A stretch of 61,200 nt of DNA from Phycisphaerae bacterium (lineage in GTDB: Bacteria > Planctomycetota > Phycisphaerae > SM23-33), in contig PUND01000018.1 of assembly GCA_003551645.1 (NCBI GenBank), positions 1 to 61,200 on the forward strand. The letters are read 5' to 3'. Of this stretch, positions 744-12,082 are shown in pieces. Both the position numbers and the translations under genes were made by a program. The notes beneath the pieces were generated by a model. The model did not search any database. It was given only the letters and a program-made list of their open reading frames with translations, and was not told the DNA's origin. Positions within the stretch are counted from its first letter, which is position 1. The number at the start of each line of letters is the position of its first letter.

Positions 744-3700
744 ATGGTGTCGCACGAATCGGCGGAGTCGAGCCGCTCGCATAATTCCGACGGGTCCATC
801 AATACCGATGCCGGCGCCGGGCTGAGCATCGAGCAGGTGTTTTCGACGCCGGGTGTTCATCCGTTCGATGAAATCTCCTGGGAGAAGCGATCCGCCCGTA
901 TCACGGACGATAAGGGCGGCGTCGTTTTCGAGCAGGACGATGTCGAGATACCGGCCGACTGGAGCCAGCTCGCGGCCAACGTGGTCGTCAGTAAGTATTT
1001 CTACGGCCAGGGCGGCACCGACGAGCGTGAGAAATCCGTCCGCCAGTTCATCCACCGGGTCACGCGGACTATCGCCGACTGGGGCATGCAGGACGGCTAT
1101 TTCGCCTCGAAGGCCGACGCGGAGCGTTTCTATCAGGACCTGACCTGGCTGTGCGTGAATCAGCACGCGTCGTTCAACTCGCCGGTCTGGTTCAACGTCG
1201 GGCTGTATAACCAGTCGGGCGTTGTCGGCTCCGAGGGCAACTTCCACTGGGACGCCGAGCAGGGCAAGGCCGTCCGCACGCTCAACAGCTACGAGTACCC
1301 CCAGGCGTCGGCGTGCTTCATCCAGTCGGTTGACGACACGATGGAGGACATCATGCGCCTCGCCACCGACGAGGCGATGCTGTTCAAGTACGGCTCCGGC
1401 ACCGGCACCGACCTTTCGACGCTTCGCAGCAGCCGCGAGAAGCTCTCCGGCGGCGGCCAGCCGTCCGGGCCGCTGAGCTTCATGCGGATATACGACCAGA
1501 TAGCGGCCGTCGTCCGCTCCGGCGGAAAGACCCGACGCGCAGCGAAGATGCAGTCGTTGAGGGTGGACCACCCTGATATCCGCGATTTCATTACCTCCAA
1601 GATGGACGAGGAAAAGAAGGCCTGGGCGCTGATAGAGCAGGGCTATGACGGCTCGTTCAACGGCAACGCCTACGCCTCGGTGATGTACCAGAACGCGAAT
1701 CTTTCGGTCCGGGTGACCGATGAGTTCATGCAGGCCGCTCTGGACGACGACGAGTGGCAGACCTACGCGGTAACCACCGGCGATCCGCTGGAGAGGCACA
1801 AGGCCCGCGAGCTGCTGGGGCTTATCGCCGAGGGGACGCACATCTGTGGCGACCCCGGCGTGCAGTACCACAGCACCGTCAATCGCTGGCACACATGCCC
1901 CAACAGCGGTCCGATCAACGCCTCCAATCCGTGCAGCGAGTACATGTTCATCAACGACTCGGCCTGCAACCTGGCGAGCTTGAACCTGATGAAGTTCCGC
2001 CTCGCCGACGGCCGGCTGGACCTGAAGCGATTCAACGCCGCGGCGCGGGTAATGATCATAGCCCAGGATATCCTGGTCGATCACGCCAGCTATCCCAATG
2101 AACGAATATGTCGCAACAGCCACGAGTTCCGTCCGCTGGGGCTGGGCTATGCCAACCTCGGCGCCCTGATAATGTCGCTGGGTCTGCCCTACGACAGCGA
2201 CGGCGGCAGGGCGGTCGCAGCGGCCGTGACGGCGGTGATGACCGCCGCGGCATACCGAACCAGCTCCGAGCTTGCCGCCCGCAAGGGCACGTTCCTGCGA
2301 TTCGCGGAGAACCGCGACCCGATGCTGCGGGTCATCCGCATGCATCGCGCCGCGGCGGGCGATATTTCCGCCGAGCACTGCCCGGAGGAGCTTCGTTTCG
2401 CGGCCGTCGAGGCCTGGGACGAGGTGCTTGCCGCCGGGCAGGCCCACGGCTTCCGCAACGCCCAGGCGACGCTGCTGGCGCCGACCGGGACCATCGGATT
2501 CATGATGGACTGCGACACCACCGGCATCGAACCGGACATCGCCCTGGTCAAGTATAAGCAGCTCGCCGGAGGCGGGATGTTCAAGATGGTCAATCGGACC
2601 GTCCCGCTGGCGCTGGAGCGTCTGGGCTATTCGCGCAACCAGGCGGCGGAGATAATCGACTATATCGACGAGCACGACACCATCGAGGGCGCCCCGCACC
2701 TGAGCCAGGAGCATCTGCCGGTGTTCGACTGCGCGTTCCAGCCGGCCAACGGCGAACGGTCCATACATTACATGGGTCACATACGTATGATGGGCGCGGT
2801 CCAGCCGTTCCTGTCCGGGGCGATATCCAAGACGGTCAACCTGCCCAAGGACGTTACGGTCGAGGATATCTCGCATGTGTATGTCAGGGGCTGGGAGCTT
2901 GGACTGAAGGCGGTGGCCATCTACCGTGACGGCTCGAAGCGCACCCAGCCGTTCAACGTCACTGACACGGGAAAGGCCGGCGAAAAGCAGGCCCCCGAGT
3001 CGGTCAGCGTGGAACAGTTCGAGTCGGCCAAGCGAATGCCGCACCGCCATCGACTGCCGGCGACCCGCCCGTCGCTTACGCACAAGTTCGAGGTCGGCGG
3101 ACACGAGGGCTATCTGAACGTTGGTCTGTACGAGGACGGCCGACCGGGAGAGCTTTTCATAACGATGGCCAAGGAGGGCTCCACCGTAGGCGGGATGATG
3201 GACGCCTTTGCCACAGCCGTCAGCTTGTGTCTGCAGTACGGGGTTCCCCTAGAGGGCCTGGTCAAGAAGTTCTCGCATCAGCGGTTCGATCCGAGCGGGA
3301 TGACGTCCAACAGGGAAATTCCGTTCGCCAAGAGTATTGTGGATTACATCTTCCGCTGGCTGGGGATCACGTTTCTGGAGGAGTTCCGCAAAACCAACCT
3401 GCCGGACAGGAAACAGTCCGGCGGCAAGAAATCGTCAGCGCCCGAGGCGGTCAGGGACGACACGAGTTCCTCGGAAAACGGGCGCGCCGACCAGGCCGAA
3501 GGCAAGGATGCTGATCGGCCTGTCGGCGCCATTTTTGACGGGGCGTACGTCGGCGGCGGCAACGGCGGAGGTTTACGAAAGCCGGCCGCGCAGAAGAAGG
3601 CGGTGGCTGCGGCCGCCGACCGCTCCGCGGCGGTCCAGTCGGACCGGGTGGACCAGCAGTTCTCGCACTATCAGGAAGACGCTCCGGCGTGCGACGTCTG

Positions 3701-3773
3701 CGGGTCCATAACGGTCCGCAACGGAAACTGCTACAAGTGCTACAACTGCGGCTCATCGATGGGTTGCAGCTAG
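744..3773 (+). CDS. nrdJ: Vitamin B12-dependent (class II) ribonucleotide reductase with C-terminal TSCPD-like domain and Zn ribbon
   Basis: Motifs SFNSPVWFN, QASACFI, catalytic SNPCSEY, LAPTGTIG, GAISKTVN; C-terminal CDVC..CYKCYNC; ATG 744 with GGAG upstream; no N-terminal ATP cone evident. Confidence 0.95.
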   Translation: MVSHESAESSRSHNSDGSINTDAGAGLSIEQVFSTPGVHPFDEISWEKRSARITDDKGGVVFEQDDVEIPADWSQLAANVVVSKYFYGQGGTDEREKSVRQFIHRVTRTIADWGMQDGYFASKADAERFYQDLTWLCVNQHASFNSPVWFNVGLYNQSGVVGSEGNFHWDAEQGKAVRTLNSYEYPQASACFIQSVDDTMEDIMRLATDEAMLFKYGSGTGTDLSTLRSSREKLSGGGQPSGPLSFMRIYDQIAAVVRSGGKTRRAAKMQSLRVDHPDIRDFITSKMDEEKKAWALIEQGYDGSFNGNAYASVMYQNANLSVRVTDEFMQAALDDDEWQTYAVTTGDPLERHKARELLGLIAEGTHICGDPGVQYHSTVNRWHTCPNSGPINASNPCSEYMFINDSACNLASLNLMKFRLADGRLDLKRFNAAARVMIIAQDILVDHASYPNERICRNSHEFRPLGLGYANLGALIMSLGLPYDSDGGRAVAAAVTAVMTAAAYRTSSELAARKGTFLRFAENRDPMLRVIRMHRAAAGDISAEHCPEELRFAAVEAWDEVLAAGQAHGFRNAQATLLAPTGTIGFMMDCDTTGIEPDIALVKYKQLAGGGMFKMVNRTVPLALERLGYSRNQAAEIIDYIDEHDTIEGAPHLSQEHLPVFDCAFQPANGERSIHYMGHIRMMGAVQPFLSGAISKTVNLPKDVTVEDISHVYVRGWELGLKAVAIYRDGSKRTQPFNVTDTGKAGEKQAPESVSVEQFESAKRMPHRHRLPATRPSLTHKFEVGGHEGYLNVGLYEDGRPGELFITMAKEGSTVGGMMDAFATAVSLCLQYGVPLEGLVKKFSHQRFDPSGMTSNREIPFAKSIVDYIFRWLGITFLEEFRKTNLPDRKQSGGKKSSAPEAVRDDTSSSENGRADQAEGKDADRPVGAIFDGAYVGGGNGGGLRKPAAQKKAVAAAADRSAAVQSDRVDQQFSHYQEDAPACDVCGSITVRNGNCYKCYNCGSSMGCS

Positions 3774-4170
3774 ACGAGCCGCAGCGGCAGAGGCGTAACC
3801 GGGTGCCGGCTTACGCTCGCCACGGCTGGAAGTATCGGCCGGTATCCGTTCGACGGGTGTATGTGTATCGCGCCCGTGTTGCTTGGCAGCGGGAGAGCCG
3901 TTGTCCGATCGGTTTTTTCGGCTCTCCATGGTGGCGCGGCAATGCCCATGGCGCCGCCAGACGATTAATTTGAGCGTCCGGTGGGTGTGTCGCGCCGAGC
4001 GGACAAGTTAATGCAGACCAGGGACGGCGGAAGCGGCGCCCCACCGCCCCCATAAAAAGGAATCAGGTCAGGGCGTTTTCGTACTCGGAAATCTCGGCCA
4101 AAACTGAGATTCCGTCTAAAGGTTACAGGCCGAACATGCCGAGTAGACCTACACGCGAGTATAATAACAC

Positions 4171-4282
4171 GTGAGTTGTCCGCTGCACCCTTAACGATGT
4201 AGGTCCCCCTCCGCCTACGTCACGGGTTGCGGCATGATAGGGCGACACCGAGGTCTCCCTCCGCCTGGGTGTCGTCCTTTTC
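4171..4282 (+). ncRNA. Putative small RNA with two hairpins bearing C-rich CCCUCC loops
   Basis: TATAAT at 4160-4165; AGGTCYCCCTCCGCCT at 4201-4216 and 4251-4266, each in a stem-loop; second stem followed by TTTT. Confidence 0.55.
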
Positions 4283-4375
4283 ATGCGCAGCGGCGTTGAC
4301 AGCAGACGCCTTGTAAACGATGATGTGTCCCGACGAAGAGGCCCCCGCGCATACCCATCGGCAAGGGCCAAGAAC

Positions 4376-5053
4376 ATGACATGCTCACTGACGCTTTCGA
4401 CGGCTACACTTGAGAACCTGCACCTGTTCCCGGCGGCGCTGCTGGCGGTGTTCGCACTGGTCAACTGCTTCTTCGGGTACATGGTGTTCCGCGTACTGCT
4501 GGCCGTTTACGGTACGGTCGGGGGAATGGCCATCGGCATATCGATTGTCGCCTGGGCGAGGGCCGAGCCGACGACTGTTGACTACGTGGTCGCGGCCGGG
4601 GCGCTTGCGGTGCTGCTGGGGCTTCTGTCGTGGTACGTATTCCGTGTCGCTTTTGCGGCGCTGGTGGCTGTGGTGGTGGCGGCACTGCTGGCAAGGGTGT
4701 TCGGCGATCCGCCGCCGGTGGGCGGATGGGTGGTCGGTGGCATCGTAGGGGCCGTGGCCGGCCTGATGGCGTTCGCGGAACTCAGGCGGGTGGTCGTGTT
4801 CTTCACCGCCGTTACGGGGGGTTTCTCGGCCGTATTCATCCCGGCGATCGCCTATGCCGGCCCCGAAGGCCTGGCGGCGCTTGGTCCGTTTGTCGGGGCC
4901 GCTATTTTCATTGCCGGAGCCGGGCTGTCTGTGGGGGGCTTTTTTGCCCAGAGCAAGCTCGCTCGCGTGTTCGATACCGGCCTGACACCCCGCAGACGGA
5001 AACGTCAACCGACCGGCAGCACCGCCCTGAGGCCGCCTTTCACACGCGTCTGA
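4376..5053 (+). CDS. Multi-pass membrane protein, DUF4203/TMEM198-like
   Basis: About 7 hydrophobic Gly/Ala-rich segments; N-terminal CFFGYxxFR motif; basic C-tail. Confidence 0.65.
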   Translation: MTCSLTLSTATLENLHLFPAALLAVFALVNCFFGYMVFRVLLAVYGTVGGMAIGISIVAWARAEPTTVDYVVAAGALAVLLGLLSWYVFRVAFAALVAVVVAALLARVFGDPPPVGGWVVGGIVGAVAGLMAFAELRRVVVFFTAVTGGFSAVFIPAIAYAGPEGLAALGPFVGAAIFIAGAGLSVGGFFAQSKLARVFDTGLTPRRRKRQPTGSTALRPPFTRV

Positions 5054-5119: not shown

Positions 5120-5686
5120 ATGGGCGAAAAGATACGCGGCAAGGCGTTCGTCGTCGGCGACAACGTGGATACCGACCAGATTATCCCGGCCATGCACTTG
5201 GTCTATGACCCCTCGGATCCGCAGCAGCGGAAGCTCTACGGCCGGTTCGCCCTTAGCGGCGTGCCCGTCGAGCAGTCCGGCTTGCCCGACGGGAACGTGC
5301 CGTTCGTGGCCGACGGCGCCGATAAGAGCGAGTTCGCGGTGATTATCGCCGGCCGTAACTTCGGCTGCGGAAGCTCGCGGGAGCACGCGCCGCTGGCGAT
5401 CTCCGAGGCCGGCTGCCACGCCGTCATCGCCGAAAGCTACGCCAGGATTTTCTACCGAAACAGCGTCAACGGCGGCTATCTCGTGCCGCTGGAGACGCCC
5501 TTGCGGCTCATCGAGCACATAGCCACCGGAACCGAGGTCGAGCTTGACCTTTCAGAGGGTGTCCTTACCGACACTGCCGCAGGGCAGAACCACAAGCTCA
5601 ACCCCCTGGGCGATGTGGCCGAGATAGTCGCAGCGGGGGGCATCTTCGACTACGCCCGTAAAACGGGGTTGCTTGAGAGCAAGTGA
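5120..5686 (+). CDS. leuD: 3-isopropylmalate dehydratase small subunit (aconitase swivel domain)
   Basis: DNVDTDQIIP, GRNFGCGSSREHAP, ESYARIFYRN motifs. Confidence 0.85.
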   Translation: MGEKIRGKAFVVGDNVDTDQIIPAMHLVYDPSDPQQRKLYGRFALSGVPVEQSGLPDGNVPFVADGADKSEFAVIIAGRNFGCGSSREHAPLAISEAGCHAVIAESYARIFYRNSVNGGYLVPLETPLRLIEHIATGTEVELDLSEGVLTDTAAGQNHKLNPLGDVAEIVAAGGIFDYARKTGLLESK

Positions 5687-11293: not shown

Positions 11294-12082
11294 ATGTTCC
11301 TGGCCTACTACGACGAAAGCGGCGACGACGGTTACCCGGAATATTCGTCACCGTTGTTCGTACTGTCATCTGTGTATATGCCGTGCACTAAATGGAAGCA
11401 GACCTTCGAGCGGGTCGCGGATTTACGCCGAGAGTTGCGAGACATATTCGGCCTTCCGGTCAAACTCGAGTGGCACACGAAGGCCCTATTGCTCAACAAG
11501 AAACCGTACCGTGAGCTTGAACTTGAAGATTCAGAGCGACTAGCGATGGTGGATCGGTACTGTGGGACGGTCGGTGCGTTGGACGTACGTATCGTGAACG
11601 TTGTGATCCACAAGCCGGCCATTCGCAGCCGCGGGTACCGGGTACTCGACACGTGCTTCCAATACTCAATCCAGCGCATCGAAAACGACCTGCTTAGAAG
11701 CGACCCGGACGAGCTGTTTATGATCATCACGGATGAGGGACGGGAAGCGTCGATGCGCAAGACCGCACGGAGGGTTCAGCGAGTTAACTATATCCCCTCG
11801 CGCTTCGGCGAAGTCCCGTATCGAAAGGAAATCGAGCGGCTCATCGAGGACCCTTTGGCGAAGGATTCGAAACATTCCCATTTCATCCAGATAGCAGATA
11901 TGGTCGCGTTTGTGGTGTACCTCCACAAGCTCGCGGAGTTGGGCGCGGGAAGCTATCACAATCGTATGCCTGCGCAGGTTACGCCGGAGAGGGTCCAAAG
12001 CTGGCTAGATATGCTGAAGCCAAGCATAAACCTGGCGGCCTCCGGAAAGGATCGTTACGGTATCGTCTGTCACCCCGCATAA
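11294..12082 (+). CDS. DUF3800 domain protein (predicted RNase H-like fold)
   Basis: N-terminal YYDESG, central IITDEG, C-terminal DS..S.FIQIADM; codon usage visibly less GC-biased than neighbours. Confidence 0.85.
   Translation: MFLAYYDESGDDGYPEYSSPLFVLSSVYMPCTKWKQTFERVADLRRELRDIFGLPVKLEWHTKALLLNKKPYRELELEDSERLAMVDRYCGTVGALDVRIVNVVIHKPAIRSRGYRVLDTCFQYSIQRIENDLLRSDPDELFMIITDEGREASMRKTARRVQRVNYIPSRFGEVPYRKEIERLIEDPLAKDSKHSHFIQIADMVAFVVYLHKLAELGAGSYHNRMPAQVTPERVQSWLDMLKPSINLAASGKDRYGIVCHPA

Follow-up and report, generated by a model that had tools for sequence, protein, structure and literature searches.

What does the gap between nrdJ and the next gene encode in this Phycisphaerae bacterium, and what would its product do in the cell? 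The window, the whole 61,200-nt stretch of contig PUND01000018.1 that we analysed, carries nrdJ, the gene of a vitamin B12-dependent (class II) ribonucleotide reductase, at 744..3773 on the + strand (NF005122, 1416 bits against a cut-off of 859; the start is that of our own gene caller), and a gene for a predicted membrane protein, with no Pfam or NCBIfam match, at 4376..5053 (+). The gap between the two is non-coding and houses a putative sRNA gene of ~110 nt (4174-4281, +), made up of two hairpins and a U-tail. We are close to certain that 4174-4281 is a genuine non-coding RNA gene, and it belongs to a real, apparently uncatalogued sRNA family that extends across the window's order. The twin loops mirror ribosome-binding sites and probably let the RNA silence mRNAs.

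Two hairpins display the same C/U-rich loop

The RNA opens with a conserved 5' leader, AGUUGUCC (4174..4181, +), which is single-stranded in the predicted fold; among 30 BLAST-selected homologues its UGU is invariant and its CC is at least 90% conserved. Hairpin 1 (4182..4233, +) consists of two stacked helices and carries the loop CCCCCUCC at 4205-4212, and hairpin 2 (4239..4278, +), which is also the intrinsic-terminator stem, carries CUCCCUCC at 4255-4262. Because a U-G pair closes each top stem, the loops are 8 nt long. The motif AGGT(C/T)(C/T)CCCTCCGCCT occurs at 4201-4216 and again at 4251-4266. The initial annotation had reported these twin motifs, and lower stems that pair despite differing in sequence; both are there as described. 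The spacing of exactly 50 nt that it emphasized is correct for the window but not fixed, varying from 46 to 56 nt among 100 homologues. Likewise, the second stem does end in TTTT (the U-tail, 4278..4281, +), but a consensus terminator scan did not list a terminator there; the tail is short in the window's genome, whereas 88 of 100 homologues have at least six T in the 10 nt past the stem.

The segment 4160-4300 has a minimum free energy of -67.7 kcal/mol (z = -5.56), a stability reached by 0 of 200 shuffles and by 4 of 400 segments of 110 nt drawn at random from intergenic DNA in the same genome. The 16-mer motif occurs only four times in the 2.83-Mb genome, so that a chance pair within 100 nt would be expected about 0.0003 times.

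Structure and loops are under selection, and the + strand is the RNA

Covariation was assessed in 103 sequences, which are kin and were aligned by fitting to a covariance model. Standard pairs filled 97.4% of cells, and compensatory (two-sided) change was found at 27 of the 30 base pairs, a value equalled by none of 500 shuffles; in slid-partner controls on the same alignment, only 30–49% were paired. Both hairpins contributed: helices 1–3 (hairpin 1) were 96.6–98% paired with compensatory change at 14 of 16 pairs, and hairpin 2 was 97.1% paired with compensatory change at 13 of 14. A free MAFFT/RNAalifold alignment of 30 sequences arrived at that fold as well, with compensatory change at 6 of 29 pairs. 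The three weakest second matches were kept for covariation and dropped for strand, spacing, and motif counts, leaving 100 homologues. Among these, 393 G-U/U-G combinations against 15 A-C/C-A identify the + strand as the RNA.

The loop C(U/C)CCCUCC was found in 59 of 60 loops of the 30 BLAST-selected homologues and in all 36 loops of 18 model-selected matches (7 of which duplicate the BLAST set). As neither set was filtered on the loop, its conservation is not an artefact of pattern searching. Both loops are open in the minimum free energy structure of 102 of 108 metagenome members. The top-stem GG/CC pairs beneath the loops hardly vary (102 of 102–103), which indicates that the sequence there, and not pairing alone, is selected. 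These data bear out the proposal that conserved loops on divergent stems reflect selection on RNA structure, and the failure of loop conservation in homologues that would have spoken against it was not observed.

The RNA is found in nearly every genome of the order

When 61 related genomes were searched by BLAST, the ~110-nt stretch, but not its flanks, was found across the window's family and order. A covariance model built from the 30 BLAST-selected homologues, a search that the initial annotation had proposed, revealed an order-wide family: 98 of 99 genomes of the order have one to seven matches each (E ≤0.001), two of the 98 best per-genome matches being weak (E 3e-5 and 3e-4). The sole exception among the 99, G007 (95% complete), gave no match to the model. 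The window's genome holds one full copy and four weaker relatives (five matches, E <0.001), with weaker relatives lying at C5 and in a tandem array at C140. Beyond the order, weak matches were obtained in 12 of 130 genomes sampled from the class's other orders (≤31.5 bits) and in 13 of 150 genomes across the phylum (≤24.4 bits). Twenty of these out-of-order matches were taken for inspection by eye; one slice was empty, and the others were rejected as members because they looked like coding sequence, chance, or single terminator-like hairpins.

A two-loop pattern scan identified at least 119 stretches in named genomes, and metagenomes contributed at least 119 further members; seven stem-less tandem-repeat matches to the pattern (L034, L042, L056, L062, L073, L115, and L132) were left out of the counts. 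Of the 80 titled sequences among the matches listed, 74 were Planctomycetota/Phycisphaerae MAGs, one was an unclassified bacterium, and five were unrelated tandem repeats; these titles point to membership of the order in Phycisphaerae. Viral contigs gave no match. The recommended Rfam scan yielded nothing above threshold, with five sub-threshold matches at the locus and four, all sub-threshold, at 12 paralogous or divergent loci. A housekeeping RNA in disguise was discarded as a candidate, SRP and 6S RNA being located elsewhere in the genome. We found no description of the twin-loop RNA in the literature searched, most subscription papers being outside its coverage.

A sigma-28-type promoter precedes the RNA

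A bipartite element, TAAAG-N17-CCGA, occupies 4117-4142. Its -35-like half, TAAAGGTT (4117..4124, +), stands at a fixed offset to CCGA (4139-4142) within the -10-like half with which it pairs, GCCGAGTA (4138..4145, +), and we liken the whole to the sigma-28 (FliA/WhiG-type) consensus. The offset from TAAAG to CCGA is 22 nt in 55 of 112 homologues, and no other offset between 18 and 25 is represented more than twice; the 108 metagenome members gave 51 matches at the same spacing and at most two at others. When offsets of 21–22 were allowed, the motif preceded the RNA in 27 of the 30 top homologues.

The initial annotation had instead pointed to a TATAAT ahead of the stem-loops. The box is present at 4160-4165 (+), downstream of the bipartite element, and a similar one often lies just past CCGA in homologues and 6S genes, making it a possible second (sigma-70 -10) element. 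However, the conserved signal is the sigma-28-type element; TATAAT has no -35 partner in the window, and a promoter scan of 3700-4500 did not list it as sigma-70. Compared with same-genus copies, a short insertion parts the promoter element from TATAAT in the window.

An element of the same type, T(A/C)AAG-N16/17-CCGA, precedes 6S RNA in 18 of 30 loci (L342-L371; none at other offsets), where it is often trailed by a TATAAT-like box; the copy in the window's genome is at C36:51223-51252. The same promoter words occur before flagellin genes, where they stand 20 nt apart (11 matches among 30 loci), the spacing before the RNA exceeding that before flagellin genes by 1–2 nt in the same genomes. 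That 6S RNA and flagellin genes are preceded by the same type of element supports its status as a promoter, and Phycisphaerae 6S RNA may be under the control of a sigma-28-family factor. The flagellin promoters (L203-L231) read T(A/C)AAG-N15-(C/T)CGATAA, and a recurrent hairpin, CAGGCTGCGTGGGTCTG, was seen in the leaders of these loci in several family genomes.

Two FliA/WhiG sigma factors are encoded in the window's genome, at C136:21439-22104 and C130:24904-25563, and it thus has both a fixed-spacing bipartite promoter and a sigma factor of the type that defines a sigma-28 regulon. At least one such factor (TIGR02479) was detected in 44 of 45 relatives, including eight of nine family genomes without a flagellin match. 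The factor L198 (C136:21439-22104) adjoins a MinD/FlhG-like gene, and a factor in this position is kept in eight of the nine family genomes in which no flagellin was found. The promoter motif before the RNA is kept in five of six flagellin-less family genomes examined. We infer that the RNA is transcribed by a FliA/WhiG paralogue unlinked to flagellin. A genome-wide scan with a promoter PWM peaked only weakly at offset 22, with 10 intergenic sites there and 2–8 at other offsets, indicating that the regulon is small or degenerate.

The loops complement Shine-Dalgarno sequences

The loop sequence, (CUCC)x2, is complementary to GGAG, the top enriched 4-mer before start codons (723 vs 140 of 2253, without SD weighting). 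At least five Watson-Crick pairs can form between the loop and 484 of 2227 RBS windows, versus 104 upstream and 143 coding windows, a count inflated by the SD weight used in calling starts. A shuffled loop of the same composition matched 568 RBS windows against 484 for the real loop; the anti-SD fit is therefore a property of any C/U-rich 8-mer. No Hfq, ProQ, or DUF1127 was found in the 94%-complete genome, and KhpA/B gave no match over the cut-off.

Individual targets were sought in several ways. Among 49 orthologue groups, the flagellin RBS ranked first in loop pairing (8/14; background 25/672), and in 11 of 16 family genomes this site, AGGGAG, can form at least six pairs with the loop. The signal fell to one of seven in the order's second family, although the RNA is present there, and stood at two of seven in outside genomes where the RNA had no match; genomes in which no flagellin was found keep RNAs with identical loops. 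We take AGGGA to be a CsrA-type site by consensus as well. The flagellin RBS would accordingly be the best single target candidate in flagellated members, one confounded with CsrA sites. A screen of GAGGGAGA...ATG sites, covering 61 ORFs of at least 50 aa from 110 of 239 sites in 19 genomes, found no family shared among them. The nrdJ RBS was rejected as a feedback target, its pairing being ordinary (rank 859 of ~2,250 genes) and reaching six pairs in none of nine orthologues. Nor did the genome show strand-specific avoidance of the loop complement, the corresponding 6-mers being no more depleted on the sense than on the antisense strand. The most depleted coding words were 6-mers containing AGCCT/AGGCT and the palindromes GAGCTC, CAGCTG, GTCGAC, and GGGCCC, a pattern that suggests restriction-site avoidance.

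We consider an Hfq-independent sRNA that acts in trans by pairing with RBSs to be the probable identity of this RNA, with appreciable room for doubt. The proposal of a trans-acting, RBS-targeting RNA is supported insofar as the loops complement the SD core of the genome, but the screen yielded no universal target. To a similar degree of confidence, the data fit a many-target RBS blocker of modest specificity better than a one-target switch. Under this model, an independently transcribed, ~110-nt non-coding RNA (4174-4281, +) would act in trans. A FliA/WhiG-family sigma, kept even without flagellin, would drive its transcription, a second promoter of TATAAT type being probable. Each (CUCC)x2 loop would then pair with GGAG, GGAGG, or GGGAG SDs through G-C-rich contacts for which Hfq would be unneeded, and such pairing would keep 30S subunits from loading on many mRNAs, its specificity being modest and not confined to one dedicated target; where members are flagellated, flagellin mRNA (RBS AGGGAG) would be the best individual candidate.

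Could the loops bind a protein, or CsrA sites, instead?

Alternatively, the RNA could be a protein decoy or an RNP scaffold, in which the GGU-CUCCCUCC-RCC modules titrate an RNA-binding protein that is dimeric or has two domains. Such a function would fit the presence of the module in two identical copies, in which the top-stem GG/CC pairs scarcely covary; the copy number varies, from one to seven, as it does for sponges, and no common mRNA target was found. The 16S 3' end of the genome, ...GAUCACCUCCUUU, has CCUCC in common with the loop; the titrated protein might be of the cold-shock, KH, or S1 type, or a factor normally bound to the 16S anti-SD tail, suggestions that we hold as tentatively as the decoy itself. 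However, no candidate protein gene is a constant neighbour of the RNA, and the C-rich-loop RNAs tested in the papers cited below work by base-pairing, according to the available parts of those papers. We regard a decoy as unlikely, while still deserving attention.

A second alternative connects the RNA to CsrA: the loops would pair with GGA-containing CsrA sites, competing with CsrA or reinforcing it. UCC is present in all three conserved single-stranded parts of the RNA. The window's genome has one CsrA, and CsrA was found in 40 of 45 relatives, including all nine family genomes without a flagellin match. The csrA RBS, GGAAGGAG, matches the loop complement at seven of eight positions in 17/23 and 6/6 genomes of the order's two families (background 127/2293). 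Yet this match includes an A-C mismatch, no covariation between loop and target was seen, and the identical csrA RBS is found in six of nine genomes outside the order, so that CsrA autoregulation explains its conservation without the RNA. The site looks like a CsrA autoregulatory site; a conserved form, NGGAAGGAG, often with UCCA before it, was seen both inside and outside the order (L482-L520).

The spacer between nrdJ and the RNA also bears on this alternative. An alignment of 26 spacers defined a second conserved hairpin at 3799..3850 (+), whose loop holds GCCACGGCTGG (3819-3829); with at most one mismatch, this loop motif is present in 30 of 64 nrdJ 3' spacers (for example L004, L005, L017, and L030). 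In 24 of the 64, a CANGGANG hairpin that resembles a CsrA site and varies in its stems comes next, shortly before the RNA; it had 0 occurrences on the minus strand and 0.17 in shuffles, and was not recognisable in the window's genome. The spacer hairpin element has no Rfam match and is possibly a CsrA-binding 3' UTR or a separate RNA. Another hairpin, at 4021-4051, contains GCGGCGCC in its loop, an 8-mer present in 21 of 64 spacers and often located 100–150 nt ahead of the RNA. Overall, we give little credence to a CsrA counterpart, and equally little to flagellin AGGGAG, the csrA RBS GGAAGGAG, and the CANGGANG hairpin of the nrdJ 3' spacer as its sites.

A broader scheme can be drawn that would unite these observations. 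The twin-loop RNA and 6S RNA would form the non-coding arm of a lineage-wide programme under a non-flagellar sigma-28-family factor, in which 6S would damp housekeeping transcription. The twin anti-GGAG RNA would exert a broad damping effect on translation initiation and, by pairing over the CsrA sites of flagellin, csrA, and the nrdJ 3' hairpin, would mirror CsrA through base-pairing in Planctomycetota that lack Hfq. As a whole, this scheme is speculative and rather improbable.

The RNA is probably independent of its neighbours

The RNA could also be a cis element of the nrdJ transcript, whether a 3' UTR, a terminator, or a processed 3' fragment. An upstream nrdJ on the same strand was indeed seen at 60 of 85 unique loci, and in one genome outside the order (G129, L320; 1 of 20 outside nrdJ loci) a single CCUCC-loop terminator lies directly 3' of nrdJ. 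Against this, the RNA has a promoter motif of its own at fixed spacing, the nrdJ-to-RNA spacer ranges from 92 to 812 nt, 25 of the 85 loci have no nrdJ seen upstream, many genomes have further copies, and the nrdJ RBS has no special complementarity to the loop. This origin is very unlikely.

On the downstream side, the RNA might serve as a 5' leader or attenuator, the GUUGUCC leader pairing with the 5' arm of the terminator as an antiterminator. A 7-bp helix between leader and arm is possible in the window sequence, and 39 of the 50 assignable downstream genes (among 79) are on the same strand. But the helix does not covary (score 0.155 vs 0.155 shuffled; 78.9% vs 78.1% paired), which speaks against the leader-terminator antiterminator; the downstream genes are heterogeneous, with 11 of the 50 on the opposite, convergent strand; and the gene downstream in the window has its own sigma-70-like promoter, TTGACA-17-GATGAT (4296..4324, +), the only site listed in 3700-4500. 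The membrane protein is moreover an inconstant neighbour, with a homologue downstream of the RNA in just 9 of 85 loci. Attenuation is hardly credible. Further along the window, a DUF3800 protein gene lies at 11294-12082.

As negligible in probability is a REP-type repeat, or a minus-strand mini-gene with the loop complement as its SD (type I toxin-antitoxin-like): the minus strand does read GGAGGGAG, a strong SD, and contig C140 has a tandem array of related hairpins, but the five matches in this genome (one full copy and four weaker relatives) and one to seven in relatives are not the tens to hundreds of a REP class, the RNA has a promoter motif and is syntenic across genera, viral contigs have no match, a start codon stands behind the minus-strand SD in 25 of 100 homologues and only 10 stay open, differences in loop spacing are not multiples of 3, and the wobble pairs point to the + strand. 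The dispersed, promoterless copies that the initial annotation had named as the sign of a REP repeat are thus not what we found, and we consider both readings largely refuted.

Related hairpins and significance

Other C/U-rich-loop hairpins were noted in the window's genome. An array at C140:5690-6430 (L153, L640) has one unit with the exact cuckoo motif, CCUCCUCCC, and, after it, a 195-nt repeat in three copies. The first hairpin varies among the copies (its loop is AAGGAAGGA in two of them) and is joined in each by a hairpin with the loop UUUUCCUCCUUUC and a terminator with the loop CUCCCUCC; by BLAST, the array had a match in 1 of 44 same-genus genomes. Two such hairpins follow TTGCAA/TATAAT at C5:5556-5673(-), two lie within a three-way junction at C107:37431-37530(-), twin CUCCCCCU loops with a U-tail occur at C59:~5450-5530(-), and one hairpin is found past a stop codon at C127:270-315(+). 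Genome-wide, CCUCC-loop hairpins showed no overall excess (18.6 vs 16.9 per 1000 for GGAGG), and those with a T tail numbered nine, against two for GGAGG. In two genomes of other orders, single terminator-like CCUCC-loop hairpins (L320 in G129, after the nrdJ stop, and L179 in G170) are possible simpler relatives, or chance.

In the literature that we searched, there is almost nothing on the sRNAs of Planctomycetota. Here, in a genome in which neither Hfq nor ProQ was found, is an RNA family whose seed-like element is clear, whose promoter is defined, and whose retention, in 98 of the order's 99 genomes, matches that of a core gene. The analysis has also provided a promoter motif, in common with 6S RNA, for a FliA/WhiG-type sigma that is retained even where no flagellin was found.

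Comparison with known RNAs

CsrB/RsmZ-type decoys of CsrA carry multiple ANGGA motifs in hairpin loops; the loops of the twin-loop RNA carry the complement of ANGGA, and ANGGA occurs anywhere in 12 of 100 members. In the ftsZ-DE motif (RF02985), which presumably lies after ftsZ, the consensus of the terminal hairpin, GGuCUCCCUgCC plus U-tail, aligns with hairpin 2. However, the match reached 17 bits where the gathering score is 72.2, the loop here is 2 nt longer and present twice, and ftsZ is not a neighbour of the twin-loop RNA.

The design is that of C-rich-loop base-pairing sRNAs, with C/U-rich loops exposed on stable, covarying stems. CJnc190 and RepG (PMC8687705) and AbnZ (PMC11724286) pair C/U-rich loops with G-rich RBSs without Hfq, and FliA-dependent FlmR (CJnc170; PMC11187230) provides an earlier example of an sRNA that is driven by sigma-28 and acts on flagellar genes, as far as the available parts of these papers go. 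No sequence relationship to any of these RNAs was seen, and in contrast to all four, the RNA described here has twin identical loops and is retained order-wide.

The initial annotation had also pointed to the 6C and cuckoo RNAs; the similarity in C-rich-loop design is real, but neither the loop motif nor the Rfam scores make the RNA a member of either family. In the part available of the source on actinobacterial 6C RNA (PMC6486639), C-rich loops pair with G-rich mRNAs at multiple targets independently of a chaperone, which is the model assumed here, and six loop C are conserved; CCCCCC occurs in none of 100 twin-loop members, and Rfam gave no match.

The cuckoo RNAs of Alphaproteobacteria (RSs0680/CcsR1-4, ar14, RF02344) are the nearest in architecture. 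As in the twin-loop RNA, adjacent hairpins carry the same anti-SD-like loop on variable stems, and paralogues, tandem arrays, an alternative-sigma promoter, and an end terminator are common to both (PMC4615179, available part). The two hairpins and 5-nt linker here also agree with the two to four adjacent hairpins and linkers of at most 10 nt stated for cuckoo RNAs. Their given limits of 9–27 nt for loops and 24–50 nt for hairpins, in contrast, exclude the 8-nt loops and the 52-nt hairpin 1 (same source). The cuckoo loop motif CCUCCUCCC occurs in none of 100 members, in which the loop is the 8-nt C(U/C)CCCUCC. The CcsR1 Rfam model scored 13.4 bits at the locus against a threshold of 65.3, and the ar14 model 30.7 against 58.8, the latter for the C140 relative only. 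We take the small upstream partner gene of cuckoo RNAs to be DUF1127; none was found in the 94%-complete genome, where the usual neighbour is nrdJ. Unlike in cuckoo RNAs, sequence conservation extends to the stems and 5' leader throughout an order, here of Planctomycetota, and the RNA lies next to nrdJ and behind a sigma-28-type promoter. The accessible part of PMC4615179 names RpoHI/II as the cuckoo promoter sigma and reports that RSs0680a binds Hfq, a protein not found in the window's genome.

The same part of that paper regards C-rich-loop RNA families as convergent and leaves open whether RNAs with anti-SD loops are global translational repressors or target-specific (PMC4615179). Because it evolved independently, has pure (CUCC)x2 loops, and showed no one target that is conserved, the twin-loop family allows global and specific repression to be tested against each other directly.
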